IMG/VR virus record: IMGVR_UViG_3300021400_000072 | Reading direction: 5' to 3' (one strand) | Source of the DNA: a virus | DNA length: 15,061 nucleotides | Part shown: piece by piece, positions 1-15,053 of the stretch | How positions within the stretch are numbered: the first letter of the stretch is position 1 | Layout: every line of letters starts with the position of its first letter | The notes under the pieces: model-generated | Database searches by the model: none | What the model saw: only the letters and a program-made list of their open reading frames with translations | Told to the model about the DNA's origin: nothing | Made by a program: the position numbers and the translations under genes

Positions 1-61
1 CAAAAACAAATCAATGTATTATACGGAATTGATAAATGGTAATTAAATGAGGTGAATAAAC

Positions 62-1486: not shown

Positions 1487-1501
1487 AAAGGAGATAATGA
1501 T

Positions 1502-2968
1502 ATGGCTTATATAAAAACTGTTTGGGAAAACGGTGACGTGATTACCAAAGAAAAATTAAATAATATAGAAGATGGAATCGCAAATGCTGGTGGCGGTGGA
1601 AGTCCAATGAAATCTACTACCCATGCAGAACTTTTGGCGATGCGTAACGCTGGGACGTTGACACCGGGAATGCAGTACCGTATCACAGACTATGTTTGTA
1701 CCACTACACAGGAAGAGTCAAGGGCGGTATCGCATCCCTTTGATATTATCGTTGTTGCGGACGATGCATCGACATTAAATGAAAATGCCCGTGCGTGCTT
1801 GCATGAGGGCGATACCTATTATACAGCCGAAAACCACTCAGCAAACCTTGAGGCGTGGGAGTTGAAATACTGTATCGACAACGACGGGGATCGTTTCGCG
1901 TGGGCAGATGCTACCAACGGCAAGGGCGTCATCTTTTGGATGAAAGATGAACGTGGCAACGAGTGCCCTTATGACTTTAAACAGATTCAGTTTAAACGGT
2001 ATAAAATCACAGAATGTACCGTGCAGAGTCTTGTTGGAATGTTAACTGCTCTTGAACACGGGAAGGCTATCACGGCAGTTGATGAGGCCAACCCGGTATG
2101 GGTCTATACATTCAGCGTTTATGATCCAGAGGCTGAGACACCGACTTATGAGGACGGGTCTGTTGCTGTGATGAATGAGGCTATGGGTTGTATAGTTTAT
2201 GGTAACGTCATTAAATGTTATCTAAACTACGCCGATATGACAGAGTATACTGGGCCGTATGTCAATTATTTGAACAATATTGTTTTCGACAACACCTTTG
2301 GGAAGCTTTGTTACAACAACGCCTTTGAGAACGGTTGCAATAGCAATACCTTTTCGAACAGTTTCACTAACAACACCTTTGGTGGCGAATGTAGTAGAAA
2401 CACCTTTGGGAAAAATTGCAATAGAAACACCTTTGGTAATTATTTCAGCGGCAACACCTTTGGGAGCAATTTCATCAGCAACACATTTGGGCACACTTGC
2501 AGTGGCAATACTTTTTCGGACAGTTGCAGTATGAATAGCCTCAGAAACGGTTGCGGTAGCAATACCTTTGGGAAAGGTTGCACTAACAACACCTTTGGCG
2601 GTTACTGCACTGATAACACCTTCGGGGAAAATTGCGCTAACAACACCTTCGGGGAAAATTGCGCTAACAACACCTTTGGGGACCGTTGTTACAGCAACAC
2701 CTTTGGGGAGTATTGTGGTGGCAACACCTTTGGGGAGTATTGTAGGGGCAACACCTTTGGGGAGTATTGCATATTCATTAATATACCGGCTGGAACCAAT
2801 GCATCACCTAAATGGTTTTATCATATCCTCTCTGGCACAAGAGGTACAAGTTCAGCCCCTCTTACAATCCCCGGTGAAGGTGGTAATAACTACGTAACAT
2901 ATGTTGGCTTAGACTCTAGCGGTGAACTTAAAACGTGGGTTCCCGCAGATTTAGTTACTTCACCGTAA
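1502..2968 (+). CDS. Structural (tail fibre/spike-like) protein with ~22 tandem nonapeptide repeats NTFGxxCxx (predicted beta-solenoid-like repeat region), globular N- and C-terminal parts
   Basis: 488-aa ORF; RBS aaaggagataatg; stop TAA; highly regular 27-nt DNA periodicity 2290-2770 producing NTFG(E/K/G)xC.. repeats. Confidence 0.55.
   Translation: MAYIKTVWENGDVITKEKLNNIEDGIANAGGGGSPMKSTTHAELLAMRNAGTLTPGMQYRITDYVCTTTQEESRAVSHPFDIIVVADDASTLNENARACLHEGDTYYTAENHSANLEAWELKYCIDNDGDRFAWADATNGKGVIFWMKDERGNECPYDFKQIQFKRYKITECTVQSLVGMLTALEHGKAITAVDEANPVWVYTFSVYDPEAETPTYEDGSVAVMNEAMGCIVYGNVIKCYLNYADMTEYTGPYVNYLNNIVFDNTFGKLCYNNAFENGCNSNTFSNSFTNNTFGGECSRNTFGKNCNRNTFGNYFSGNTFGSNFISNTFGHTCSGNTFSDSCSMNSLRNGCGSNTFGKGCTNNTFGGYCTDNTFGENCANNTFGENCANNTFGDRCYSNTFGEYCGGNTFGEYCRGNTFGEYCIFINIPAGTNASPKWFYHILSGTRGTSSAPLTIPGEGGNNYVTYVGLDSSGELKTWVPADLVTSP
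2290..2770 (+). repeat. Tandem 27-bp coding repeats (nonapeptide NTFGxxCxx) inside gene 1502..2968
   Basis: Regular periodicity of aacacctttgg-containing units; also explains the spurious overlapping ORFs in other frames. Confidence 0.8.
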
Positions 2969-2994
2969 TTTAAGAAAAAGTGAGGTGATTTAAC

Positions 2995-3399
2995 ATGAGT
3001 AAATTAAAAATAAAAGACAAAAACGGGAAATGGGTTGAAATTACTGGTATAAAGGGAGACAAGGGCGATACTGGTAAACAGGGTATCCAAGGTGAACGTG
3101 GAGAAAAAGGTGATAAAGGTGACACAGGTGCATCGGGTCGTGACGGTGTAGACGGCATCTCCCCGACCGTAACTATAACCCTCATCACAGGCGGTCACAG
3201 AATCACTATCACGGATAAGGACGGCACAAAGACGGCTGATGTGATGGACGGAACTACTCCAAGCCTTACCAACTATGTGCAGTTTACCGACCTTGCCACA
3301 ACATCCAGAGCAGGTGCAATGTCCGCACAGGATAAGAGCAGACTTGATGATGTGTATGCGGATTATTCAAGCGCACTTACAGCATTGGGGGTGATTTGA
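2995..3399 (+). CDS. Collagen-like (G-X-Y)n repeat protein, probable fibre component
   Basis: 134-aa ORF; RBS gtgaggtga; GIKGDKGDTGKQGIQGERGEKGDKGDTGASGRDGVDG collagen-like run; stop TGA immediately followed by next ATG (3401). Confidence 0.55.
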   Translation: MSKLKIKDKNGKWVEITGIKGDKGDTGKQGIQGERGEKGDKGDTGASGRDGVDGISPTVTITLITGGHRITITDKDGTKTADVMDGTTPSLTNYVQFTDLATTSRAGAMSAQDKSRLDDVYADYSSALTALGVI

Positions 3400-3400
3400 T

Positions 3401-4075
3401 ATGGCAACTCCATTAACAGATAGCATCAATGCCTTGACCACTTATGCTAATGATGTCACAGGGGCATCGGATACAACATTGTCGGATGCAGTGCATACAC
3501 TTGGGAGTGGGTATGGCGGTTCAGCAACTCTCATCACCAAAACCATCACCGCCAATGGCACATATTCCGCAAGTGATGATTCCGCAGATGGATATTCAGA
3601 GGTTACGGTAAATGTACCAAGCAGTGGATCATCTGCATGGACTAATGTTGCGGAAACGAGTTATTATGTTAGTACGACATCAACGACCACAGAAACGGTG
3701 GACACATGGGCAACAGGACATAGCGAGATATGGACAAGGTCTAAGTGGGTGTATGTTCGCATAAGGGACACGGCAGGAAAAAGAAATGACTATTTTTATG
3801 GAAGCGATCAATTTTTTATGATTCCTTCCACTACTTCGACATCAACAACGTCTGGTATTCGGTATTATATGAGATGTAATTCAGACGGAATTTATTTTGC
3901 TAGTTCAACATCTGGAACAGCTGGATTCGGAGTGTACGCTGATACGCTTTACTCAGACGGTAGAATAAGAATCCGTAAAAGATATAGCAGTAATGCTTCT
4001 TTTACCGTTGACGGCACATACAAAGTCGAAGTCTACCTTCTTGACCCGCCAACAGGCGCACCAATCTTTGAATAA
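3401..4075 (+). CDS. Ser/Thr-rich hypothetical protein, likely distal fibre/structural domain
   Basis: 224-aa ORF translationally coupled to upstream gene (TGATATG overlap-type junction); stop TAA. Confidence 0.45.
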   Translation: MATPLTDSINALTTYANDVTGASDTTLSDAVHTLGSGYGGSATLITKTITANGTYSASDDSADGYSEVTVNVPSSGSSAWTNVAETSYYVSTTSTTTETVDTWATGHSEIWTRSKWVYVRIRDTAGKRNDYFYGSDQFFMIPSTTSTSTTSGIRYYMRCNSDGIYFASSTSGTAGFGVYADTLYSDGRIRIRKRYSSNASFTVDGTYKVEVYLLDPPTGAPIFE

Positions 4076-4092
4076 CGAAAGGAGAATTATAA

Positions 4093-4334
4093 TGTATCAG
4101 TATTACATTACCGAAGTCCGCAAGACTATAACAGGCGAATTTGAGCATGACAACTATTGGGTCTACGATGAGGACGAGCAGACCGCAAGGCTCAAGGGCG
4201 AAGGAAAATTCCACGAAGTTCTGAGCCGTGCGGCAACGTCCACATTTGCAGAGCACGGAGCAATCCTGTTTACATCCACATGCTATCCCATCAAGCACGA
4301 ATGCTATACACATGGAGCAGAGCAGGAAGAATAA
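4093..4334 (+). CDS. Small hypothetical protein (80 aa), paralogue of 4528..4803
   Basis: RBS aaaggag 7 nt upstream of ATG 4093 (the ORF-track start at 3993 lies inside the upstream gene and lacks an RBS); MYQYYITEV...ARLKGEGKFHEVLS...FTS motif shared with paralogue; stop TAA. Confidence 0.5.
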
Positions 4335-4343
4335 GGAGACGCC

Positions 4344-4513
4344 ATGCTGACATACTGCTTTGAGACCACAGCATCAGCAGGTACGGAGATACATCAAACC
4401 TGTATGCCACATATTCTAATGGCACACTGACTATTGATACGGTATCCAACACGTCAGCAAGGCGATTTCGTTCGGGACAGACGTATAATTATACGTTGAT
4501 TAAGTGGACATAA
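4344..4513 (+). pseudogene. Possible frameshifted or decayed small gene between the two paralogues (ATG 4344 with good RBS runs only 28 codons; an overlapping start-less frame stays open from 4364 to TAA 4511)
   Basis: RBS aaggagacgcc + ATG 4344; frame 0 stops at TGA 4428; alternate frame open 4364-4513 without a start codon. Confidence 0.2.
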
Positions 4514-4527
4514 AGGAGGAAATAATT

Positions 4528-4803
4528 ATGACTCAATACTATATCATGGAACTTCAAAAATATGCGGACGGTTCTTACGGTGACATTAAACACATTGCGT
4601 ATGACGAAGACCCCACAAGAGCAAGACTTAAAGGTGAAAGTAAGTTTTATGAAATTTTATCGGCAGCCGCTGTAAGTGAATTGCCAGTACATGCCGCTAT
4701 CATGTTTACATCTGAGGGTGTACCTGTAATGAATCAGAGGTACGTACATGCGATTCCGCAGGAAGAGGTTGAGCCTAAAGAGGAAACACCTGAAGATGAA
4801 TAA
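4528..4803 (+). CDS. Small hypothetical protein (91 aa), paralogue of 4093..4334
   Basis: RBS aaaggagg 8 nt upstream of ATG 4528 (the ORF-track start at 4504 would place the RBS inside the ORF); MTQYYIMEL...ARLKGESKFYEILS...FTS shared with paralogue; stop TAA. Confidence 0.5.
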   Translation: MTQYYIMELQKYADGSYGDIKHIAYDEDPTRARLKGESKFYEILSAAAVSELPVHAAIMFTSEGVPVMNQRYVHAIPQEEVEPKEETPEDE

Positions 4804-4945: not shown

Positions 4946-5443
4946 ATGGCCAATTTTAATCAAAATGGGATGAATGGTATAATACCTAATCAATATCCCT
5001 ATACTAACAATTTAATAATGAATACTCCTTACGATAATTATCTTGGGAGAAATAATGTAACTGTAAACGCAAATGGTCAAAATTATCCAAATCAATTTTT
5101 AAAATGCAGGCCAGTTGCATCTAAAGAATAGGCAAGAGCCGCTCAGATAGATTTAGATGGCTCTCTATGGGTTTTTACTGATGTTGGAAATTAGAAAATT
5201 TATACTAAACAAATAAATTATGATGGAACAGCAACTTTTAAAACCTATGCTTTAACTGCTGATGAAAATCCTTATAATTCTTCTGAATATGTTACAAAAG
5301 ATGAATTTAATAGTGTAATACAAAGTTTAATGGCGGCAATTCAGTCTCAACCCGTTACCCAAAAAGTTTAGACCGAATCCGCATAGAATAATAAAAATAC
5401 TGGACAAAGCAGTAATAATAATTTTATAGTTAAGAGGGTATAA
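4946..5443 (+). CDS. Hypothetical N/Q/Y-rich protein (165 aa) containing 4 in-frame TAG codons (5129, 5192, 5369, 5384) that would have to be read as sense
   Basis: RBS aaaggagaatg; frame stays open through four TAGs with no TAA/TGA until TAA 5441, in roughly 70% AT DNA; next gene's ATG 6 nt downstream. Confidence 0.5.
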
Positions 5444-5448
5444 TTATT

Positions 5449-5679
5449 ATGAATGTAAATCCGATTCAATTAATAAATATGATAAAAAACGGTCAAAATC
5501 CTCAACAGCTTATGATGAATATTTTAGGACAAAATAATCCTATTCTTAAAAATGCAATGAATCTAGCGCAAAACGGGAACACATCTGCTTTATAGATGAT
5601 TGCACGTAATTTAGCACAACAAAGAGGTTTGGATTTTGATACAGAATTTGCAAAATTTAAAAATTATTTAAATCAATAA
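5449..5679 (+). CDS. Small hypothetical protein (76 aa) with 1 in-frame TAG (5593)
   Basis: RBS aagagggta; ATG 5449; single in-frame TAG then continues to TAA 5677; followed 12 nt later by next gene with RBS. Confidence 0.45.
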
Positions 5680-5691
5680 TGGGAGATACAA

Positions 5692-6459
5692 ATGTTTAAT
5701 AATAATACTAATGGATATTCCTTATCTGATATTGCAGCCGCAACAGGCAATAATAATAATGGTTTTGGTTTTAATGGCGATGGAGCCTGGATCTTTTTCT
5801 TATTTATTTTAATGCTTGCGGGCGGTTGGAATAATAACGGTTTCGGTGGAAATGGACAGCCTGCTGTTATAGCTGATGTTCAACGTGGTTTTGATCAGAG
5901 TGCCCTTATGAATAGTTTAAACGGTGTGACTGCCGCAATAAATACTGGCTTTTCAAATGCGGAAGTATCTCGTTGTAATTCACAAGCGAATATCCTACAA
6001 ACATTAAACAATAATCAAGCAAATCTATCTACTCAATTAAATACAATAGCAATGAATCAACAGAACTGTTGTTGTTAGAATAGAGCGGGATTAGCTGATC
6101 TGAAGTATACTGTAGCTACAGAAGCATGTGCAGACCGCACAGCAGTTACAGATGCTTTAAGAGATGTAATTGCATCAAATACAGCAAATACACAGGCCAT
6201 TCTTGATAAACTTTGTCAACAATAGATTGAATCTCTCAAGGCTCAGAATCAACAGCTTCAGATGCAGGGTTATCTTGCTAATTTAGCAGCTTCTCAAAAT
6301 GCTCAAACTGGACAGATTCTTGCAGATAACGCGGCTCAGACAGCTACATTACGTCAGGCCTTAAATCCTACTCCTATCCCTGCATATGTTGTTGCAAATC
6401 CTAATGGATGCAACTGCGGAAACTGGAACGGATGTTGCGGTAACGGTTTTTATAACTGA
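5692..6459 (+). CDS. N/G/C-rich membrane-anchored protein (255 aa) with 2 in-frame TAGs (6076, 6223). N-terminus carries a Gly/Asn-rich segment followed by a hydrophobic helix (GFGFNGDGAWIFFLFILMLAGGW), resembling the tiny-TM, Gly-rich spore-associated peptides of Firmicutes. C-terminus is Cys-rich (NPNGCNCGNWNGCCGNGFYN).
   Basis: RBS gggagatacaa + ATG 5692; ORF-track pieces 5692..6078 and 6262..6459 are in the same frame and joined only by two TAGs; stop TGA 6457. Confidence 0.55.
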
Positions 6460-6474
6460 TAAGGAGGTTAATCC

Positions 6475-6930
6475 ATGGCTAGTTATGTAACAACTGCTGA
6501 TGCAACAGTAGCTTTAAATGGAACGATTCCCTTTAATAGTGTTTCTATTCCCTGTAACAAAGGTAATATTATTCCTATTGTTCCTGGAATTCTTAACTTA
6601 AATGGTAATACTTCTAATCGTTTTGCAAGATATGATATTACTCTCCAAGGAAATATTCAAATCCCTACAGGCGGAACAGTTACTCCTATAGCAATTGGAA
6701 TTACTCTTAATGGGGTAGTAATACCGTAGAGTGTTGCAATCGTAACACCTGCGGCCGCAGGAGAATATTGGCATGTAAATACTACAGCGTCTGTAACTGT
6801 TCCTTGTGGCTGTTGTTTAACCGTATCTGGAGCATATATAGACGGTACTGAAGATGACCCAGCTATAACTCCTACCCCTTCTATTTTAGTTAGACGTGGG
6901 GCTTCATTAACAGGAATCAGGACAGCATAA
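6475..6930 (+). CDS. Hypothetical protein (151 aa) with 1 in-frame TAG (6727)
   Basis: RBS aaggaggttaatcc + ATG 6475; frame continues past TAG 6727 to TAA 6928; antisense ORF 6657..7016 is therefore spurious. Confidence 0.5.
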
Positions 6931-6940
6931 GGAGGAAAAT

Positions 6941-7504
6941 ATGGGAACTGAAGCATTAAAAATGATGAAAGACCAACTAATGAGTTGTGTACAAAGTCAA
7001 CTTGGTGATATATCAAAGGCAGATGCCCATGAACTTGGTGAAGCTGTTGATATGATAAAAGATTTGTCTGAAGCGATATACTATTGTACTATTACTGATT
7101 CAATGGAAAAAGCAGAAGAAAAAGAAAAAACTTCTGTTAATAATATAAATTATTATACCACCCCATATCCAGATTATAGAAATATGGAACGCAATAATGG
7201 ATATATGTATTATTCTGGCGGGAATGGTGGTAATATGGGAGGTAATTCTAGCTCCAATGGCGGAACTACCTCTTATTATACTGAAATGATGAGAGATCCC
7301 CGTTAGGGAAGATCTCCAATAAGAAGAAGAATGTATATGGAAGGTAAAGAAATGCATAAAGATACAAGTTCTCAACTTCATGAACTAGAAGCATACCTTC
7401 AAGAACTTTCTTCAGACATAACAGAAATGATTAAAGACGCATCACCAGAAGAGAGAACTACATTACGTCAAAAAATGACCACATTAGCTAATAAAATTAA
7501 CTAA
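6941..7504 (+). CDS. Hypothetical protein (187 aa) with Gly/Asn/Tyr-rich low-complexity segment and 1 in-frame TAG (7304)
   Basis: RBS aaggaggaaaat + ATG 6941; frame open past TAG 7304 to TAA 7502. Confidence 0.5.
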
Positions 7505-7505
7505 T

Positions 7506-7820
7506 ATGTTTTTAATCAATAATGTTTATTGGAAACTCTCTTTTGTTGCTCCTAATTTTCCTTTATTACAAAGATTAAACGGAGAATTTTCAATAGGAGC
7601 ATGTGATAATCTTACTCGAACAATTTATATAAACGAAACGTTACAAGGAGATTTATTGCGGAAGGTACTTTGCCACGAAATAACACATGCTGCAATGTTT
7701 TCTTATAATGTTAATCTTTCTCTTGAGCAATAGGAATTGATAGCAGATTTAATTTCTACATATGGAGATGAGATTATTTATATAACAAATAAAATTTTTA
7801 ATAAATTAGGAAATATATAA
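7506..7820 (+). CDS. Small HExxH zinc-metallopeptidase-like protein (ImmA/IrrE-type motif VLCHEITHAAM) with 1 in-frame TAG (7731)
   Basis: ATG 7506 abuts upstream TAA (translational coupling); HEITH motif in translation; frame continues through TAG 7731 to TAA 7818; strong terminator follows. Confidence 0.45.
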
Positions 7821-7824
7821 ATTG

Positions 7825-7866
7825 ATAGCTGTCGGTTCTACTTTTAACCGACAGCTATTTTTTTTT
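7825..7866 (+). terminator. Rho-independent terminator (13-bp perfect stem atagctgtcggtt/aaccgacagctat, 7-nt loop, T9 tract)
   Basis: Direct inspection; lies right after the TAA of the HExxH gene. Confidence 0.85.
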
Positions 7867-7890
7867 AGAATTATAAAAAAGGGGAGATAA

Positions 7891-8400
7891 ATGAATCTAT
7901 TATAGACAATTGAAAAAATTATTCATCAAATTCGTCCTTTTGAAGGTATTAGTTCTTGTGTAATTTTTATTTTATTTATAATCGGCACAGTAATACAAAT
8001 TTCTCCTATAAAAATTAATCCTTGGGATTTTTTATTAGGGTGGATAGGAGAAAGATTTAATTCTGGAATTAATAAAAAAGTAGGGCAGTTAGAAAAGAAA
8101 ATAGATTAGCATATAGAAAGTAGTAAGAATAAAGATTTAAAATAGCAAAGATAGTATATTATTTCCTTTGTCGATGAAGGTGTTAATGGAAAACGACATA
8201 CAAAAGAATCTTTCTAGAATGCGATACGAGCTTGTGATGCATATGAGAAATATGTTCGTTAGAATGATATTGAAAATGGCGTTATCGTATCTTCTATTAG
8301 TGCCATTAGATTAAAATATGAACAACATTTAATTAATGCTGATTTTGCAACAGGCGAACATTATGTTGAAAATGCTAAATAGATGCAAAATGAAAACTGA
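7891..8400 (+). CDS. Membrane protein, holin-like: N-terminal hydrophobic helix, then coiled-coil/charged region. Contains 7 in-frame TAGs (7903, 8107, 8143, 8152, 8215, 8260, 8380).
   Basis: RBS aaaaggggagataa + ATG 7891; 169-codon frame with 7 TAG and zero TAA/TGA until TGA 8398; reads naturally if TAG is Gln (KIDQHIESS..KQQRQYI..FQNAIRACDAYEKYVRQND); flanked by terminators on both sides. Confidence 0.55.
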
Positions 8401-8470
8401 AATAAAAAATACCAAAACCTATTTTAGTTTCTGCATGTTGGTAGAGTGCGCGCCAAGCACCTTAATAACA

Positions 8471-8519
8471 CAAAAAGCCTCGATATGAGTCATATTCATA
8501 TCGAGGCTTTATTTTTTTA
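8471..8519. terminator. Bidirectional rho-independent terminator (15-bp perfect stem aaagcctcgatatga/tcatatcgaggcttt flanked by A5 and T7 runs) between convergent genes
   Basis: Direct inspection; separates + holin-like gene and - vWA gene. Confidence 0.85.
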
Positions 8520-10022
8520 TCTAATTACGGCATATCTTTCACTATTAATAGCTTCAAGCATTAAGTCGTAACCTGTCTTACCAGTAATAACTTGCTTGAA
8601 AATAGTAGGAGACATACCGCTTACAAACGATACATTAGGACCTGCATCCAGGATTGTATTCTGGCGGGCATCCACATTCCAATAGACCAGCTTAGGAAGC
8701 TGTAGGCCATAAGCTGCCCACTTCTGACGAATCTTCTCCATCTCTGTTGAAGCAGAACGCTTTGTCCAATGACTATCACTCCAATAACCAGTACCACTAT
8801 CAATTTCCATATCAGAAATAACTACAATGGTCTTAGGAATGTCACTCTGCTTAACACCTCTCTTAGTTGCTGTCTTTAGAAGTAAATCAAATACAGCTTC
8901 TAGGTTAGTATTATCACAAAGATTTGTCTTGTAGATACGGCGAGCCTTATCTACAAAATCAATACCTTCTGTCTTAATCAGCTGAGGATGTGAAGCAAAA
9001 CTAATATAGTAATTCTTAAAAGGACCACCAATACGTTCTGCGCAATACAAACCTAGACTGATTGCTACGTTAAGAGGAGCCGCCGCATCTTTACCAGTCA
9101 TAGAACCAGAAGTATCTACGACACACATCATGCTACAATCCTTACCATTAAGATAATCAGGAAGATTATCCCAATACTTATTAATCATAGCACGTTCAGT
9201 TTCACTAAGAGCCTCAAAGTTGTAAGACCATGTTGAAGCCTTAACTGCCTTAGCTACCACTTCATAAGGGTAAAGTACAGAAGCATTAACCTTTGTATTC
9301 TTATCTTTTGCAAAAGATTCATACTTCTTAGCGATAATATCACGTCTTGCAAAAGCATTACGATAAATAATACCTGCGCGAGAAGGAATCTTATCAAACT
9401 CAATCTTATCCCATTCGTTGGCGGACATCAGTCTTTCAAGAACATTAATCTTAACTCTTAGCTTTGAAAGCATCTGACGATACTGCTTAGAAGTAACTCC
9501 TAAATACTGTCTAATCTTCTTTGCTCTTGCAATTGTTTCCTTACTTGAAGCATTTTCAGAAGGAAGCCACTTAGCGATAAGGCTAATACCATTCTTCTTA
9601 CATGCCATATCCTCACGAAGCTGCTTTTCAATAAGAGCCATTACATTCTTTTCAACAGGAGTGTCGAAAAGTTCGAACAGGTCATCATATCTACCATATT
9701 CAGGAAGATATTCAATCAAGTTACGGGCGCGGGCAGGCTTGTTCTCTGCCAACCAGCGGAAGCATGTACGGAAGAATCTACGTTCACCCTGACCACCACG
9801 GCAGTCACGAATATAGAATAGACACTTCAGTGCAAGAACTGAATCCTCTTCAAAGGCGTTCTTGAAAAGAAGGATACAATCTTCGTCTGTACGCTTACGA
9901 TAAGCGGCACCCATAGCAAACAATGTATAAACGTCACTATTTAACTTTTTATAAGCGAGTGCTCCATTCTCTGTTCTCTTGTAATTGAAATCGTTTGAAA
10001 GCTGATTCATAAATGTATTCAT
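8517..10022 (-). CDS. vWA-domain protein with MIDAS motif (VVDTSGSM). Its N-terminal alpha-helical module resembles the DUF2828 family and the TROVE (Ro60-like) module (TENGALAY...LFAMGAAYRK).
   Basis: 501-aa uninterrupted ORF; DxSGS MIDAS signature near residue 300; N-terminal motif pattern similar to the Ro60 N-x-x-G-x-x-A-F...L-F/I-x-L-G motif; family assignment from memory, not searched. Confidence 0.7.
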   Translation of the reverse strand: MNTFMNQLSNDFNYKRTENGALAYKKLNSDVYTLFAMGAAYRKRTDEDCILLFKNAFEEDSVLALKCLFYIRDCRGGQGERRFFRTCFRWLAENKPARARNLIEYLPEYGRYDDLFELFDTPVEKNVMALIEKQLREDMACKKNGISLIAKWLPSENASSKETIARAKKIRQYLGVTSKQYRQMLSKLRVKINVLERLMSANEWDKIEFDKIPSRAGIIYRNAFARRDIIAKKYESFAKDKNTKVNASVLYPYEVVAKAVKASTWSYNFEALSETERAMINKYWDNLPDYLNGKDCSMMCVVDTSGSMTGKDAAAPLNVAISLGLYCAERIGGPFKNYYISFASHPQLIKTEGIDFVDKARRIYKTNLCDNTNLEAVFDLLLKTATKRGVKQSDIPKTIVVISDMEIDSGTGYWSDSHWTKRSASTEMEKIRQKWAAYGLQLPKLVYWNVDARQNTILDAGPNVSFVSGMSPTIFKQVITGKTGYDLMLEAINSERYAVIR

Positions 10023-10251: not shown

Positions 10252-10352
10252 ATTTAAAAAATAAATTTTATTCTTTGCCTATCTATTTCTCTGCAAATAA
10301 GTAATTTTATTAAAAATAATTTTGTTTTCTTTTTCATAAAATACTCCTTTAA

Positions 10353-10424
10353 TACTCCCAGCGGGAATCGAACCCACATCGAAGGCTTAGAAGGCCTTTG
10401 CTTTATCCTTTAAACTATAGGAGT
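10353..10424 (-). tRNA. tRNA-Arg (anticodon TCT)
   Basis: Hand-folded cloverleaf: 7-bp acceptor (one G-U), T-loop TTCGATT, anticodon stem AAGGC/GCCTT, loop CTTCTAA. Confidence 0.7.
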
Positions 10425-10520
10425 ATAATAAGGCTCTTTGCTACTTCTTTTCCCAACCTTCTGAGTGATGGTACTTACACAGCGGTTCGCTTCAGATTTT
10501 CAGAATTACCTTATATTAAA

Positions 10521-10592
10521 TATCCCATACAAGAATCGAACTCGCATTTTTAGGGCCGTAACCTAACGGTTTATCCATTAGCCTAATGGGAT
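10521..10592 (-). tRNA. tRNA-Arg (anticodon ACG), slightly atypical (G37, one D-stem mismatch)
   Basis: Perfect 7-bp acceptor ATCCCAT/ATGGGAT; anticodon stem TTAGG/CCTAA, loop TTACGGC; T-loop TTCGATT. Confidence 0.55.
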
Positions 10593-10597
10593 ATAAT

Positions 10598-10667
10598 TGC
10601 GCCACTACGAATCGAACGTAAATCTCCCCCGTATGCAAGGGGGTATGTTACCATTACACCACGGCGC
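10598..10667 (-). tRNA. tRNA-like with 8-nt anticodon loop TTGCATAC (contains CAT; Met/Ile2-like with one extra nucleotide). Possible pseudogene or noncanonical tRNA.
   Basis: Acceptor GCGCCGT/GTGGCGC (two G-U pairs); anticodon stem CCCCC/GGGGG enclosing 8 nt; 4-bp T-stem; positions 8-9 are GG. Confidence 0.4.
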
Positions 10668-10772
10668 GAGCATTTATCATATTTTTTGTTTGTTTACGGT
10701 TAGCTACTCCGCACCCTAAACAACTTTTTTGATAAATGTTAATACAATACATTAATTAACTTTTGTACTAAA

Positions 10773-10845
10773 CAGGAGCGGAAGGATTCGAACCTTCATA
10801 ATCACGGTGTTGGAGACCGTTGCTGTACCATTGAGCCACGCCCCT
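10773..10845 (-). tRNA. tRNA-Trp (anticodon CCA)
   Basis: Perfect T-stem GAAGG/CCTTC with TTCGAAT loop; anticodon stem ACGGT/ACCGT, loop CTCCAAC; 7-bp acceptor with one G-U. Confidence 0.7.
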
Positions 10846-10852
10846 TTAGTTT

Positions 10853-11272
10853 TTAACGATACCCGTTAGAAAACCCAGGAAGATTACAATACTCACGAAT
10901 AAATTCTTCAGGAGAATTATTAAAAAGACCATCTAACTGTTCAAGAGAAAGATTAGTTTCTTTTACAATAGGATAAATCTCATACTGGAGATTTTCGCTC
11001 ATAAGTTCATTAAGAACATCGGTATATTCATCATCTGCTCCTGAAGTAGAATCTTCCATATATTCATCTAATTCATCTTCATCCCAACCTATTTCGTTGG
11101 CGGCAGCCGCTTCCAAATCATCCATAATAGAAGAATATTCTTCCATAATAGCATAAGACTCGTCAATAGCCATTTCTTCAACTTCTTCTTCAGTACCCTC
11201 TGCAACAAAATAGGATACCATTCCGTGCATTCCATTATACATCTGTTCACAAGCGATTACTGCATAAAGCAT
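10853..11272 (-). CDS. Highly acidic protein (139 aa, D/E-rich), possible DNA-mimic/anti-restriction-type protein (speculative)
   Basis: RBS aaaggaag 9 nt upstream; stop TAA; very high Asp/Glu content in translation. Confidence 0.5.
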   Translation of the reverse strand: MLYAVIACEQMYNGMHGMVSYFVAEGTEEEVEEMAIDESYAIMEEYSSIMDDLEAAAANEIGWDEDELDEYMEDSTSGADDEYTDVLNELMSENLQYEIYPIVKETNLSLEQLDGLFNNSPEEFIREYCNLPGFSNGYR

Positions 11273-11552
11273 AGTTTAAATCTTCCTTTCTTTTTTTAAT
11301 AATGCACACCACAAAATTGTACACAGGTTAAATACATGTGATGTGCTATAACCTGTTTTGCCTAGCGTTTCAGATGTGTTTTAGTCCTAATTTATTTAGG
11401 ACAATCACGCATAGTCCCATTCACATCAGGGGCTTTAGGTCTCACTGTATGTAGCCGGATTCACCCTTCCTATCCCCCACTCATACAGGATGGTTGATCG
11501 TTTTTATACCGCATCTCCATTCTACGGTCAACCGAGCATTTGACTCAGTTTA

Positions 11553-11635
11553 AGCCAGCAATAGGATTTGAACCTATATCGTTTTAGGCCTTACACTCCT
11601 TGGGGGAGCCGCTTTACCAATTAAGCTATGCTGAC
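11553..11635 (-). tRNA. Type II (long variable arm) tRNA-like, anticodon CAA (Leu) by position but with poor anticodon-stem pairing; possibly degenerate
   Basis: Good acceptor (GTCAGCA/TGCTGGC), D-arm GCTT/AAGC and T-arm ATAGG/CCTAT. The anticodon region folds best as a CTCC/GGAG stem with a 5-nt loop. The variable arm forms no clear hairpin. Confidence 0.4.
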
Positions 11636-11643
11636 ATTTTTAG

Positions 11644-11715
11644 CAGGCCCAGATGGAATCGAACCATCACATCGTGAGTCAAAGTCACGTGCGCTAGCCG
11701 TTACGCTATGGGCCC
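11644..11715 (-). tRNA. tRNA-Gln (anticodon TTG)
   Basis: Anticodon stem CGTGA/TCACG, loop CTTTGAC; T-arm GATGG/CCATC; acceptor GGGCCC/GGGCCT. Confidence 0.7.
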
Positions 11716-11734
11716 ATATACAAGAGACATTATT

Positions 11735-11806
11735 AGTAGACCGCGGGATTCGAACCCGCATATCAAAATTCGCAGTTTTGTATCTTATCCATTAGATTAA
11801 ATCCAT
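11735..11806 (-). tRNA. tRNA-like element with intact T-arm, anticodon arm (loop CTGCGAA, anticodon GCG) and D-arm, but a 5' acceptor strand that cannot pair with the 3' strand; probable pseudo-tRNA or tRNA mimic
   Basis: T-stem GCGGG/CCCGC, anticodon stem CAAAA/TTTTG, D-stem ATCT/AGAT all perfect; expected 5' strand GGTCTAC is absent (observed ATGGATT). Confidence 0.35.
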
Positions 11807-11884
11807 TAATTTTTTTTATTGCTGTGTGTCTCTTTATCAACTTTCTATATATATTATAATAAAAATTTTTATTTTTTTCAAATA

Positions 11885-11959
11885 AGCACAGAGTGGGATT
11901 TGAACCCACGAATAACGGTTTTGCAGACCGCTGCGGTAACCAGGCTGCGCCATCCGTGC
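11885..11959 (-). tRNA. tRNA-Cys (anticodon GCA)
   Basis: T-stem GTGGG/CCCAC; anticodon loop CTGCAAA; 7-bp acceptor with one G-U. Confidence 0.7.
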
Positions 11960-11963
11960 AAAA

Positions 11964-12003
11964 GAAAGGGATATGAAACGTATAAATTTCATACCCTTTT
12001 TTA
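11964..12003. terminator. Hairpin terminator (about 13-bp stem with one bulge, loop cgtataaa, T-runs on both sides) between - gene 12006..12194 and tRNA-Cys
   Basis: Direct inspection. Confidence 0.6.
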
Positions 12004-12005
12004 AA

Positions 12006-12194
12006 TTAATCGACCGATTTTACTTCAATATATTTAGGCTTGATTAAAACCTGTTTCTGTAATGCATGAGTTATCTGGAACATGCGGAAACGTGCTTCCC
12101 GCCTAGCTTCATCTCGTTCTTTTTTATTCTCAATATCATTAACAGGATTAAAAGATTCCAATGCATTAGTGCCTATTGTTTTCCACTTAGACAT
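12006..12194 (-). CDS. Small basic hypothetical protein (62 aa)
   Basis: ORF with RBS aaggagag upstream; followed (transcript sense) by a hairpin terminator. Confidence 0.4.
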   Translation of the reverse strand: MSKWKTIGTNALESFNPVNDIENKKERDEARREARFRMFQITHALQKQVLIKPKYIEVKSVD

Positions 12195-12208
12195 TAATAA
12201 ACTCTCCT

Positions 12209-12556
12209 TTAGTTAAGAAAATCCTTCAAAATTCTTTCAAATTCATTGCTGGTAATAGGAGTCGCTACAGGTCTCTTTTCTTTCTGCGAAGGTGACTCCA
12301 GAACAGCTTCTACTAAATCTACCAGCAAAGGATTTTCATTTTCATATGTTTTAACATATTTAAGAATTTCTTTATTAAGAGCCTGAATCTTTTCTTCAAG
12401 GTTTGCTTTTGCGATAGCCTTTTCTGCTTCAAATCTACGTTTTTCTTCTGCTTCTTTACGTTTCTCTTCTGCTTCTGTCTTCTTTTTGAGTTCAGCTTCA
12501 ATACATTCTTTTTCTGAATCAAAAATCTCATCCAGAACTTCACTATAAAATTTCAT
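12209..12556 (-). CDS. Lys/Glu-rich coiled-coil hypothetical protein (115 aa)
   Basis: RBS gagaggaaaaaagaATG; charged heptad-like EEKRKEAEEKRR repeats. Confidence 0.5.
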   Translation of the reverse strand: MKFYSEVLDEIFDSEKECIEAELKKKTEAEEKRKEAEEKRRFEAEKAIAKANLEEKIQALNKEILKYVKTYENENPLLVDLVEAVLESPSQKEKRPVATPITSNEFERILKDFLN

Positions 12557-12597
12557 TCTTTTTTCCTCTCTTTTTTAAAATATTTTTATTAACGAAA

Positions 12598-12671
12598 GGT
12601 GGCTAACGGGACTTGAACCCGTAACAGGCGGTACCACAAACCGCTGGACTACCAAATTGTCCTATAACCAC
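12598..12671 (-). tRNA. tRNA-His (anticodon GTG), discriminator C
   Basis: Anticodon stem GCGGT/ACCGC, loop TTGTGGT; T-stem ACGGG/CCCGT; discriminator C73 as expected for His. Confidence 0.7.
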
Positions 12672-12673
12672 AG

Positions 12674-12747
12674 CTGGAGTGGTGAGACTCGAACTCACGG
12701 CATCGTGATCCCAAATCACGCATTCTAGCCAACTGAATTACACCCCA
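12674..12747 (-). tRNA. tRNA-Pro (anticodon TGG)
   Basis: Anticodon stem CGTGA/TCACG, loop TTTGGGA; D-stem ATTC/GAAT; T-stem GTGAG/CTCAC; 2 nt from tRNA-His. Confidence 0.7.
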
Positions 12748-12806
12748 ATATACAAGACACATAAATAAGTATTGATCTACCCATTGATCTATTTTGTCTA
12801 TTCTGG

Positions 12807-12851
12807 CAACAAAAATCGGATTTGAACCGATAACATATACTAAACGTATAA
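12807..12851 (-). tRNA. tRNA 3'-half remnant (acceptor 3' strand + T-arm) followed by a short hairpin; no matching 5' half
   Basis: T-stem ATCGG/CCGAT with ATTTGAA loop; no complementary acceptor strand downstream; flanked by attgctgtgtgtgtc motif. Confidence 0.3.
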
Positions 12852-12880
12852 ATTGCTGTGTGTGTCTTATTATTAAATTA

Positions 12881-13114
12881 TTAACCTAACATAGCAAAAT
12901 CTATAAATCTTTTTACATCATCTGCATTATAACAAACCAATTCCATCTCAGGAATATTTGAATCTTCAAACATCTTAGCAAAAGCAATATATTGAGTAAG
13001 ACGACTCTTTAGATTTAATCTATCGCCTTCTTCTGTTACTAATTCAACTTTTCCTGTACACTTATCAACTGTTTCAAAAAACTTTTTAATATCATTAATA
13101 TGATATAACTTCAT
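12881..13114 (-). CDS. Small hypothetical protein (77 aa)
   Basis: RBS aaaaggagaataaATG; stop TAA. Confidence 0.45.
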   Translation of the reverse strand: MKLYHINDIKKFFETVDKCTGKVELVTEEGDRLNLKSRLTQYIAFAKMFEDSNIPEMELVCYNADDVKRFIDFAMLG

Positions 13115-13235
13115 TTATTCTCCTTTTATATAATCTCTATAAGTACAATATTCTTCAAACGTTCCTTTGAAGCCATTTTCAACAGCCTTAGAATATTCTT
13201 CATTTAGAACTTTTGAATAACTTATAGATTCCTAA

Positions 13236-13541
13236 TTAAACTACATAACCGATTGCTAACTCATCTGTATACTCTCTTTCTCTTGCGGTCATTGCAAGAA
13301 AACGTTTAATGTCAGAATGGCTCCACCAGTGTCCGCCATGTCTACCTTTTTCTTCTCCAAACGCCGGTCTACGCTTAGAAACTTTAGGTTTACAAAGAGA
13401 ACATGAACAATGAATTTTACCTTTACTATACTGATGAAGGTGAGGATACCATTCACTACCATCTCTTTCTTTACAAATTTTCTGCTTTCTGATTGCCTTT
13501 GTCCAATCATTATGTCTCTTTTCTGCAAGTGTTCTACACAT
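13236..13541 (-). CDS. Cys/His-rich small protein (101 aa), probable zinc-binding; embedded in tRNA array
   Basis: Internal ATG (13539-13541) has RBS aaggag 8 nt upstream; the longer ORF-track start (13616) would overlap tRNA-Ser; CSCSLC ... HGGHWWSH motifs. Confidence 0.45.
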   Translation of the reverse strand: MCRTLAEKRHNDWTKAIRKQKICKERDGSEWYPHLHQYSKGKIHCSCSLCKPKVSKRRPAFGEEKGRHGGHWWSHSDIKRFLAMTAREREYTDELAIGYVV

Positions 13542-13574
13542 GATAAACTCCTTTGAAACTAGGTTAACAGAAAG

Positions 13575-13659
13575 CGGTGCGAGAGGGATTCGAACCCCCA
13601 GCCCAATTAAGAGCAACGGTTTTCAAGACCGCACCTCCTCCCCACTAAGGTACCGCACC
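13575..13659 (-). tRNA. tRNA-Ser (anticodon TGA), type II
   Basis: 85 nt; anticodon stem + loop CTTGAAA; long variable arm; T-loop TTCGAAT. Confidence 0.65.
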
Positions 13660-13842
13660 ATATCAAGGCTTAAAAAGTTTCATTTTCTCTTTTTTCAGAG
13701 GTCAATTCCTATTAAGAATAAGAAATAGAAAACTTTCAAATAAAAGAAACTTGTCTATTTTACGACCAAAATTCTCCTAAGAATCATGTTAAATCTTGTA
13801 ATTTTAAACCCATTAAAAATAAAATTGCCGTATAAGCCTTAG

Positions 13843-13930
13843 CGCGGATGAGTGGATTCGAACCACCGGACCCAAATGTAGGGTCAATACCTTAGCAGGG
13901 TACCGCATTAAACCTCTCTGCCACATCCGC
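13843..13930 (-). tRNA. tRNA-Ser (anticodon GCT), type II
   Basis: 88 nt; perfect acceptor GCGGATG/CATCCGC; variable-arm hairpin GACCC/GGGTC; anticodon loop CTGCTAA. Confidence 0.7.
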
Positions 13931-13939
13931 AAATTGGGA

Positions 13940-14012
13940 TAGCCCGCCGGAGAATCGAACTCCGATTTCTGGTTTTAGAGACCAGCGTCTTAAACCGTTT
14001 GACCACCGGGCC
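13940..14012 (-). tRNA. Amber suppressor tRNA (anticodon CTA, decodes UAG); type I, amino-acid identity not determinable by eye
   Basis: Perfect 5-bp anticodon stem CTGGT/ACCAG with 7-nt loop CTCTAAA (U33, anticodon CUA, A37); perfect T-stem CGGAG/CTCCG with TTCGATT loop; acceptor 6/7 bp. Confidence 0.7.
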
Positions 14013-14137
14013 ATACCAAGACAGATTAAAAATTGCTTTAATTAGATTACAAGTCCAATGCAAAAATTAAAATAGATTGCTGTTTCTGTCTTTCATCTTA
14101 TAAATATATTATATAATAATTTTTTTAAAAAATCAAA

Positions 14138-14211
14138 TGCATGATATAGGATTTGAACCTATGCCCCTTTCGGTGTAAACGAAATGCTCATCCCAGCTGA
14201 GCTAATCATGC
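14138..14211 (-). tRNA. tRNA-Val (anticodon TAC)
   Basis: Perfect acceptor GCATGAT/ATCATGC; anticodon stem TTTCG/CGAAA, loop TTTACAC; D-stem GCTC/GAGC. Confidence 0.75.
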
Positions 14212-14379
14212 ATATTGGCGGGAAACTCCCGCCTAATCCGACTTTTGAGTTTCACAGGTATCGGGGAGGAACCAGGGATTAAATCCAGCCCACCTTAATA
14301 TTTAGTTTCCCATCTCCTCGGGGTAACTAACAAACCTGAGGGTCTTCCATATCGCACGTGCATATTGATATAGAATAAA

Positions 14380-14455
14380 TGGACCGTGTGGGAATTGAAC
14401 CCACCTGATTTTCTGTGTGCAAGACAGATGACCACCCCGTGCAGTCCCACAGCCC
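14380..14455 (-). tRNA. tRNA-Ala (anticodon TGC)
   Basis: Anticodon stem TCTGT/ACAGA, loop CTTGCAC; T-stem GTGGG/CCCAC; acceptor GGGCTGT/ACGGTCC with two G-U; 7-nt variable region. Confidence 0.55.
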
Positions 14456-14681
14456 AGTACTAAGAGGCTTGATTACCCTCTTTACAGCAGTTTGATCCTG
14501 CTTGCCGATGACGTTATAGGTCCGCCGCCCGCACATTTATTTGCTAAAACACGGTTTCCAGGGTATCTTTGTATAATCACATTACCGCAAAGAGGTATAT
14601 ACCTTTATCATATTATAGACGCGTTTCTATAATATTCTCCCAAATTTTTTATTGTACATAGATGGTAAAGAGACAATAAAA

Positions 14682-14755
14682 TACTACGAAGTGGACTCGA
14701 ACCACTGACGACTTCCTTATCAGAGAAGCATTCTAACCTACTGAATTATCGTAGT
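14682..14755 (-). tRNA. tRNA-Ile (anticodon GAT)
   Basis: Perfect acceptor ACTACGA/TCGTAGT; T-stem AGTGG/CCACT; anticodon loop CTGATAA. Confidence 0.75.
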
Positions 14756-14969
14756 AAATAAGGGTTAAAAGGAAAGGAAAATGCATTTTTACTTCGTAAT
14801 AACCTTTCTCAGTTAACCATCTAATTTTTATGCCTGTCTAGCCTTATACTAGAATATTACATATGCGATAAGTTGTTCTGTTGCATCGCTATTTTGAACT
14901 ATCCCTGTCTCCTTATCAAAATTAGACACCTTTACTATATTTCAAGGCTTTTTGCGGCGTCCCGCTTAG

Positions 14970-15053
14970 TCCTGGGAGAGGGAATCGAACCCACTCGGTG
15001 CCGAAGCCATGGGATTTACAGTCCCACCCGTCTCCTTAGCGGTCTACCCCAGG
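14970..15053 (-). tRNA. tRNA-Tyr (anticodon GTA), type II
   Basis: 84 nt; anticodon stem TGGGA/TCCCA, loop CTGTAAA; long variable arm; T-stem has one mismatch. Confidence 0.6.

Follow-up and report, generated by a model that had tools for sequence, protein, structure and literature searches.

In the virus record IMGVR_UViG_3300021400_000072, a stretch of 15,061 nucleotides (nt) that was analyzed as a whole and is called the window here, the gene at 7891–8400 on the + strand encodes a small membrane protein and is read through seven in-frame TAG codons. On balance, its product is probably a membrane-anchored holin partner or lysis regulator, which would be made while a suppressor transfer RNA (tRNA) of the phage is active and for which a terminator would form an added barrier. 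This view is based on the position of its homologs in the lysis cassettes of related phages, where they mostly lie directly upstream of a small holin with one to three membrane helices or directly after the endolysin gene. The lysis role is what we infer, as are the topology of the protein, its function in timing and the residue that is inserted at TAG. An 87,363-bp contig from sheep rumen contains the window sequence unchanged; about 35 kb of this contig, with 29 called genes, was examined. Megablast of the whole window against GenBank phages gave no match.

The reading frame continues through seven TAG codons

An earlier examination of the letters of this DNA (the sequence-only reading) had described a gene with 7 TAG in 169 codons, and the open reading frame (ORF), when read directly, is as described. 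The end assigned to it at that time, 8519, takes in the 3′ untranslated region and a terminator beyond the ORF. The gene and the elements that define its translation are the following.

7891–8400, + strand: coding sequence of a single-pass membrane protein of PHROG 37604, with ATG at 7891, TGA at 8398–8400 and 169 sense codons
7903–8382, + strand: TAG-bearing span of the gene, with TAG at 7903–7905 (codon 5), 8107–8109 (codon 73), 8143–8145 (codon 85), 8152–8154 (codon 88), 8215–8217 (codon 109), 8260–8262 (codon 124) and 8380–8382 (codon 164)
7881–7886, + strand: Shine-Dalgarno-like GGGGAG, 4 nt 5′ of the ATG, as read from the letters

More than 130 full-length homologs of 163–176 amino acids (aa) align in frame across all of the TAGs. 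Standard-code relatives have plain sense codons at these places, and some of them use TAG as the stop codon of the gene. When the gene was compared with those of three recoded relatives, the ratio of nonsynonymous to synonymous substitution rates (dN/dS) was 0.11–0.37. The full-length homology through every TAG, together with this ratio, indicates that the frame is real. It was also correctly recognized as the last gene of the + strand block, the next gene (8517–10022) converging on it from the − strand.

The protein family accompanies holins and endolysins

A profile search of 1.84 billion representative sequences recovered 1,357 relatives of the protein at E ≤ 1e-3, nearly all of them 140–175 aa long. 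The protein itself matched the phrog_37604 profile (E = 1.2e-23, residues 27–152 on positions 41–167 of 168), for which no function is assigned in that database, and 125 of 125 diverse relatives matched the same profile, with a best E of 6e-59. The family is represented in genomes of Lachnospiraceae, Clostridiales, Oscillospiraceae and Bacilli. Among 50,697 GenBank phage records searched by tblastn, seven matched, all of them from phages of Firmicutes or uncultured gut phages, and the hosts of phages with family members are Solobacterium, Faecalibacterium, Enterocloster and Clostridium innocuum. No source that names the protein was found.

The gene order in these phages carries the lysis reading. 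In Solobacterium phage SMO_1P, the homolog is preceded by a 97-aa three-helix protein and a GH25 endolysin; in Faecalibacterium phage Pioen, it is followed by an M15 endolysin and a holin-like single-helix protein resembling that of LL-H; and in Clostridium phage Saumur, the order is homolog, 126-aa multi-helix protein, endolysin, annotated holin. In ten viral loci close to this phage, a gene designated C4 (92 aa, two or three helices, phrog_20258) starts 3–12 nt past the homolog, and the gene that precedes the endolysin in SMO_1P is likewise of the C4 family. A search based on C4 gave 70 viral loci, the homolog being present in 38 of them and many of the remaining loci ending within about 1.3 kb of C4. 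The order C4, a gene of about 1 kb, homolog was observed in 28 of the 38 loci, and all eight middle genes that were scanned encode GH25/LysM endolysins. Occupying the place of a holin ahead of GH25 endolysins in no fewer than 28 viral loci, C4 looks like an unannotated holin family. In L004, L011–L017, L020 and L021, the C4 protein has two or three hydrophobic segments and a conserved TGIIxxRGxNxxxDL tail and is listed with 'unknown function' in PHROGs.

More diverse members of the family have other partners. One gene overlaps that of a Pfam r1t-type holin (PF16945) by 4 bp, another is followed by a 67-aa two-helix protein and then by an M15 endolysin, two further ones overlap genes of three-helix proteins, and an LL-H-like holin is also found among the partners. 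A small multi-helix holin gene in the same orientation is the neighbor in most relatives, but neither in the window nor in the recoded relatives. Because the family is a constant companion of holins from several unrelated families, it is better understood as a holin partner or regulator than as a holin. The sequence-only reading had taken the gene for a holin-like lysis gene; the membrane helix and the linkage to lysis genes in dozens of relatives agree with this, but a separate small holin almost always lies beside the homologs, so that the protein looks more like a holin partner than like the holin itself.

Predicted topology and fold

The N-terminal hydrophobic helix that had been proposed was recovered as a transmembrane segment, with a maximum Kyte-Doolittle hydropathy of 2.38 at residues 19–37 when a 19-residue window was used.

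7945–8004, + strand: single transmembrane helix, GISSCVIFILFIIGTVIQIS, codons about 19–38, by Kyte-Doolittle hydropathy and as AlphaFold2 helix 20–37

Exactly one hydrophobic segment was found in 117 of the 125 family members. Over all 125, the N-terminal flank of the helix carries on average 0.78 Lys or Arg and 1.72 Asp or Glu, and the C-terminal flank 1.94 and 0.50, respectively; Lys and Arg are more abundant on the C-terminal flank in 91 members and on the N-terminal flank in 10. With an acidic N-terminal and a basic C-terminal flank, the large domain should face the cytoplasm according to the positive-inside rule. The predicted topology is N-out/C-in, with a short acidic N-terminal tail outside and a helical domain of about 130 residues in the cytoplasm.

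An AlphaFold2 model from 125 sequences was all helical, with a mean predicted local distance difference test score (pLDDT) of 89.4, and comprised a short N-terminal helix and helices at residues 20–37, 44–98, 105–124, 132–149 and 155–167; this run superseded one with 24 close sequences, which had reached a pLDDT of 60. In the model, the C-terminal 130 residues or so appear as a long stalk helix that leads into a small bundle of helices, suggesting a conserved folded domain. The tail had been described as a charged coiled coil, and its helical nature was borne out, but a merely charged coiled coil is at odds with the model. Residues 61–169 contain 17 Lys or Arg and 16 Asp or Glu. The parts conserved in the family are the stretch behind the membrane helix (PIKINPWD..LGWIGERFN) and the bundle, and R87, F93, Y118, N129 and Y143 are invariant or nearly so. 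The long helix is one heptad (7 residues) shorter than in most relatives, a deletion that fits a coiled-coil stalk. A dual-start antiholin motif of the lambda type was also considered and rejected, as the protein has only one Met and lacks a charged extension.

TAG is probably read as glutamate

The suppressor tRNA on which translation of the gene had been supposed to depend is encoded by the phage itself.

13940–14012, − strand: phage tRNA-CUA suppressor with a tRNA-Glu-type body, found by ARAGORN; 55.6 bits with the Rfam tRNA model

As in a stop-recoded late gene, then, homology spans the in-frame TAGs and a matching phage tRNA-CUA is present. This tRNA sits in a long − strand tRNA array among TAG-free genes; the window contains 17 tRNAs of the array, and 31 were counted over the extended locus. 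Its closest matches in GenBank phages are tRNA-Glu genes, those of Lactobacillus prophage Lj928, Enterococcus phage EfsSzw-1 and Streptomyces phage pSt2308, with which it agrees in the D-arm, the 4-nt variable loop and nearly the whole anticodon arm. It does not resemble the tRNA-Glu(CUC/UUC) and tRNA-Gln of the phage itself, so that copying from one of these was rejected as its origin.

The codons aligned with TAG were tallied in the seven recoded genes, using four recoded lineages and standard-code homologs, which gave 28 columns where TAG faces a sense codon. The majority residue was Glu in 18 columns, Gln in 4, Lys in 2, Met in 2, Thr in 1 and Asp in 1, and some of the Gln residues in the databases may themselves be translations of TAG according to genetic code 15. 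Among the 22 columns with Glu or Gln, 18 have Glu (p = 4e-4, given 48 Glu and 59 Gln codons in these genes). The commonest partner codon of TAG is GAA, with 18 columns vs 6 for CAA, and GAA is two mutational steps away from TAG. In the gene at 7891–8400, standard-code relatives mostly have Glu at codons 5, 73 and 109, Asp or Glu at codon 124, Lys at codon 85 and Gln at codon 88. In the relative L106, an HNH gene with three TAGs has homologs with Glu or Asp at two of them and Gln or Lys at the third. The TAG of a 196-aa tail protein and two apparent TAGs in the DUF2828 gene of L018 gave no information on the meaning of the codon.

TAG is probably read as Glu in this lineage, judging from the tRNA-Glu-type body of the tRNA-CUA and from the alignment of TAG mostly with Glu codons. 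Translation of TAG as Gln (genetic code 15), which the sequence-only reading had assumed, is not supported, as Gln is the majority residue in few of the aligned columns and the tRNA body is not like that of the phage tRNA-Gln. Only reassignments of TAG to Gln and of TGA to Trp were described for phages by Borges et al. (bioRxiv 10.1101/2021.08.26.457843), and no report of a TAG to Glu reassignment in phages was found in the literature searched. Such a reassignment could arise through charging of the phage tRNA by the glutamyl-tRNA synthetase of a Firmicutes host.

The array that contains the suppressor (10352–15053, − strand) runs on into L105 (1–9000). ARAGORN reports four-base anticodons at two places in it, 'gcat' at 10596–10669 and 'tttg' at 1101–1172 of L105, and there are two tRNA-Trp genes, one of them 83 nt long. 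The otherwise TAG-free tRNA region of L106 (178 kb) includes, besides the HNH endonuclease gene with three TAGs (2124–2705), a PD-(D/E)XK-like gene with two (7171–7542). The presence of these two genes there recalls the homing endonuclease that Borges et al. (bioRxiv 10.1101/2021.08.26.457843) had described as recoded.

The recoded unit is a block of seven genes

The gene had been singled out as the most heavily recoded one, which stands as regards TAG number and density. With 4.1 TAGs per 100 codons, it shows the maximum in the window, where the next gene reaches 2.4, and it also has the highest density among the 29 called genes: with 2.3% of the codons, it accounts for 7 of the 19 in-frame TAGs (Fisher p = 4e-6 for TAG against CAA/CAG compared with those genes). 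The gene has the largest absolute number of TAGs, the first of them being codon 5, and therefore relies on suppression more than any other gene for its synthesis.

The outcome within its own block differs according to the amino acid with which TAG is counted.

TAG share of TAG plus Gln codons: 0.54 in this gene, 0.16 in the other six genes of the block, Fisher p = 0.007
TAG share of TAG plus Glu codons: 7/20 (0.35) in this gene, 10/45 in the other six genes of the block, Fisher p = 0.22

The Gln-based test gave p = 0.01 in L010 and p = 0.06 in L018. The seven genes at 4946–8400 together contain 17 TAGs and the 22 surrounding genes 2 (p = 1e-13), and the − strand, tail-fiber and endolysin genes contain none. 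The recoded unit is the whole block 4946–8400, and its distribution is clearly non-random. Evidence for selection that piled TAGs specifically into this gene is weak, and the Glu-based count weakens such a claim. Retention of TAG between lineages was tried as a sign of selection and discarded, because the six TAGs kept between the window and L010 are about what drift predicts (~0.26 estimated from dS = 0.66).

It is possible, if not what we expect, that the high TAG count is incidental, in that the block drifted to TAG as a Glu codon, the gene is rich in Glu, and lysis is timed in another way. This explanation competes only with the idea of a timer and not with the identity of the gene. It is favored by the Glu-based share, since the neighbors C11, C12, C8 and C9 have values of 0.33–0.50, by the gene of L018, which has just three TAGs and is not the top gene there, by the extent of TAG retention just described, and by the location of the TAGs at variable, surface-type acidic positions away from the conserved residues. 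On the other hand, seven TAGs from codon 5 onward make synthesis suppressor-dependent whatever their origin, and the block is sharply distinct from its surroundings. In addition, a conserved terminator forms a second barrier just before the gene, and lysis genes are biased to recoded stops in two other phage lineages (bioRxiv 10.1101/2021.08.26.457843).

Lysis genes of this phage and known lysis proteins

An endolysin gene, which the sequence-only reading had suggested to look for outside the window, was found directly upstream of it, its last codons forming the beginning of the window.

1–42, + strand: 3′ end of the endolysin gene, last 13 codons and stop; identical peptide with synonymous DNA differences; 9229–9981 of the parent contig L025
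4946–7820, + strand: six TAG-bearing genes of unassigned function between C1 and the gene at 7891–8400; not at this position in standard-code relatives

The endolysin (250 aa, CW_7 repeat, no TAG) shares 59% identity with a CHAP/CW_7 lysin and has matches among the endolysin families of PHROGs. Its end is followed in window positions 1–4800 by tail-fiber genes and the small gene C1, a region without TAG whose DNA is 82–94% identical to that of standard-code relatives. In the latter, C1 is followed directly by the homolog, then by C4 and then by an integrase gene. The arrangement of six genes, membrane protein gene and terminator is the same in three diverged recoded relatives, L008/L106, L010 and L018. 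When all ORFs in the 35 kb were scanned for hydropathy, none of the real genes proved to encode a further small membrane protein. With the usual partner holin absent from these 35 kb, the protein may act on its own in this lineage.

Several known lysis proteins resemble the family in part. XhlA is a membrane protein encoded directly upstream of holin and endolysin genes, the same order as in many relatives of the present gene. It is about half the size of the present protein and has its membrane helix at the C-terminus. The protein did not match Pfam XhlA (PF10779), and 2 of the 125 relatives did so at E = 0.0019, below the family cut-off; in searches of the 125 against Pfam (E ≤ 0.01) and PHROGs (E ≤ 0.001), these two weak matches were the only ones to a holin family, and the Pfam scan otherwise gave coiled-coil noise only. 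In the Bacillus subtilis prophage PBSX, XhlA, the holin XhlB and the endolysin XlyA are all required (PMC5589764).

LysF1b of F1-cluster mycobacteriophages has a single N-terminal helix, is predicted to be N-out/C-in and extends into the cytoplasm with a long helical tail, and it is needed together with the two-helix protein LysF1a for efficient and timely lysis (PMC13056207). The present protein shares the single N-terminal membrane helix and the predicted topology, and its family is often encoded beside a small holin-like gene. Unlike its conserved folded bundle, however, the tail of LysF1b (124 aa) is highly charged, and the LysF1b gene lies downstream of that of its partner. No homology between the two was detected, no mycobacteriophage being among the seven tblastn matches in the 50,697 records. 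The i-spanins (Rz-like) likewise carry their membrane helix at the N-terminus, with a long helical region behind it, and one spanin family is preferentially TAG-recoded in crAss-like phages (bioRxiv 10.1101/2021.08.26.457843). In contrast to the present family, which is almost confined to Firmicutes, has the reverse predicted topology and lacks a lipoprotein partner gene, i-spanins belong to hosts with an outer membrane and are N-in/C-out.

Several observations weigh against a holin partner that times lysis. First, no holin, antiholin, XhlA or spanin model was matched in searches of the protein against Pfam, PHROGs (E ≤ 1) and NCBIfam (E ≤ 0.01); no Pfam or NCBIfam domain and no PHROG of named function was matched either. 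Second, no informative fold match was obtained, as Foldseek of the model gave nothing in the PDB and only uncharacterized family members in BFVD, and a profile search of PDB sequences gave nothing below E = 0.028. Third, the predicted topology is derived from hydropathy and charge counts. Fourth, the neighborhoods are not uniform, since in L019, L022 and L023 the homolog is followed by a small helix-turn-helix-like (regulator-like) gene and no holin, and the homolog in L124 has no membrane neighbor. Fifth, the endolysin gene, adjacent to the homolog in many relatives, lies 7.8 kb upstream in this phage with tail-fiber genes in between, and C4 was not found in the 35 kb of the recoded lineage by tblastn or pattern scan. 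Finally, by Glu-codon count the gene is not more recoded than its neighbors in the block.

The protein could instead be the hole-forming holin itself, built like those of the LL-H type or class III from a single helix and a long soluble tail, which we consider doubtful. Like LL-H-type holins and T4 T (class III), it has one membrane helix and a long soluble domain and is tied to lysis cassettes; it is small (169 aa, one segment at 19–38) and without an enzymatic domain. The recoded lineage lacks the usual partner holin. Apart from a 255-aa cysteine-rich protein, no other membrane protein is encoded by the real genes that extend over about 35 kb between the tail genes and the late block's end, and long-tailed single-helix holins do exist, such as the annotated holin of Saumur (198 aa, phrog_6918). 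Nevertheless, no model of these holin types matched the protein, and T4 T is N-in/C-out with a periplasmic domain (PMC13056207), the opposite of what the charge distribution predicts here. Nearly every relative with a clear cassette has a separate small holin-like neighbor, from at least four different families. Instead of the short, highly charged and poorly conserved C-terminal tail of a holin, there is a conserved folded domain of about 130 residues with the conserved polar residues R87, Y118, N129 and Y143. Moreover, the absence of a holin covers about 35 kb of a genome of more than 87 kb.

Terminators on both sides of the gene

The two strong terminators that had been noted on either side of the gene were recovered with folding energies far below those of shuffled sequences.

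7824–7866, + strand: intrinsic terminator with a 14-bp stem (hairpin 7824–7859) and nine T, −21.4 kcal/mol, z = −7.5 vs shuffles
8474–8518, no strand assigned: terminator with a 17-bp stem (hairpin 8474–8510) and seven T, −24.5 kcal/mol, z = −11.0 vs shuffles

The downstream hairpin is common to the gene and the converging gene at 8517–10022. L010 and L018 have the upstream hairpin as well, built from other stem sequences (compensatory changes), which indicates that it is a functional element. Transcription of the gene would need read-through of this hairpin or a promoter that overlaps it. A promoter-like site (TTAACC, 16 nt, TAGAAT) at 7844–7871 overlaps the hairpin and matches at 9 of 12 positions, and such sites are no commoner than in shuffled sequence.

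That the gene instead encodes an accessory membrane protein, for example for superinfection exclusion or another host modification, as an independent unit at the end of the late operon is quite improbable: its own flanking terminators and the overlapping promoter-like site, the location of the homolog near the integrase gene in temperate relatives and a conserved globular domain of unassigned function would suit this, but promoter-like sites of this kind are no more frequent than by chance, the same-strand spacing with holin and endolysin genes is tight or overlapping in many phages, the linkage is kept while the position relative to the endolysin varies, and TAG at codon 5 rules out synthesis in a lysogen without suppressor activity.

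Proposed mode of action

As a holin partner or lysis regulator, the protein would work with or control a hole-forming protein. It would be made only when the tRNA-CUA, itself encoded in the standard-code array of the opposite strand, is active. Without suppression, the TAG at codon 5 would leave a peptide of only four residues, and with seven TAGs the yield should rise steeply with suppression efficiency, the upstream terminator acting as an additional barrier before the gene.

A translational lysis timer of this kind is plausible. The general idea was already proposed by Borges et al. (bioRxiv 10.1101/2021.08.26.457843), who found lysis genes preferentially stop-recoded and suggested that this blocks premature synthesis of lysis proteins; the present gene would be a further example in a new lineage and protein family. 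As in the phages they studied, there is a suppressor tRNA, early or standard-code genes lack in-frame stops, and a lysis-associated transmembrane protein is rich in recoded stops. Those phages were TAG-recoded crAss-like phages (amidase, spanin) and TGA-recoded Agate phages, whereas the present one is a rumen Firmicutes phage with another protein family. It also differs in that the endolysin is unrecoded, recoding is found within one seven-gene block and TAG seemingly stands for Glu. The study by Borges and colleagues reportedly appeared later in Nat Microbiol (2022).

A more far-reaching proposal, which taken as a whole we regard as rather unlikely, joins these points: a suppressor that descends from tRNA-Glu would read TAG as Glu, PHROG 37604 would constitute a new and widespread class of single-pass N-out/C-in holin partner or trigger, and in this lineage the partner would have been lost, leaving the protein alone behind a terminator and seven ambers. 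If this were true, the cytoplasmic helical domain would control hole formation, and the double lock would make lysis a steep function of the level of suppressor tRNA.

Other genes of the region

A mosaic boundary lies between 1–4800, which has a GC fraction of 0.40–0.47 and no TAG, and 4946–8400, which has a GC fraction of 0.27–0.39 and TAG in all seven genes. The genes of the latter part are 65–71% identical to, or absent from, standard-code relatives. This boundary indicates that closely related large phages differ in code use. Within the block, 5692–6459 encodes the 255-aa protein mentioned above, which is rich in Asn, Gly and Cys and has one hydrophobic segment (phrog_16490), and 6475–6930 encodes a 151-aa protein (phrog_20016); both genes also occur 3′ of the homolog in the standard-code locus L023. 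At 7506–7820, a 104-aa protein with a HEITH metallopeptidase-like motif has weak matches to SprT, M78 and DUF6782.

Upstream of the boundary, two paralogous small genes on the + strand (4092–4334 and 4504–4803) encode proteins with the common N-terminal motif (M)xQYYI. The second, whose product starts MTQYYIMELQKYADGSYGD, is the gene directly before the homolog in all standard-code relatives. In the tail-fiber region, the gene at 1502–2968 (+ strand) encodes a 488-aa protein with a long run of short repeats ending in NTFG (e.g. CxxNTFGxx) and without a family match. On the − strand beside the tRNA array, the product of 8517–10022 is a DUF2828/DUF7788 protein of 501 aa that includes a von Willebrand A-like domain and belongs to phrog_850 ('RNA-binding protein'); the gene has no TAG. 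In the 178-kb relative L106, the DUF2828/DUF7788 gene (12991–15359) is split by a LAGLIDADG endonuclease gene.

Implications

This rumen phage of Firmicutes, whose genome measures at least 87 kb, would add another lineage, the third and independent of the other two, in which a lysis-cassette membrane protein carries the most recoded stops, which bears on the published idea of recoding as a guard against premature lysis. The comparison also illustrates that a recoding statistic depends on the amino acid for which TAG stands. A Glu-type suppressor, if confirmed, would widen the known range of phage genetic codes and change the translation and annotation of such genomes. PHROG 37604, a large family without annotation, is linked to holins and endolysins in phages of gut and oral Firmicutes, and its culturable members in SMO_1P, Pioen, Roos, Saumur and Amboise make the proposed role in lysis directly testable.

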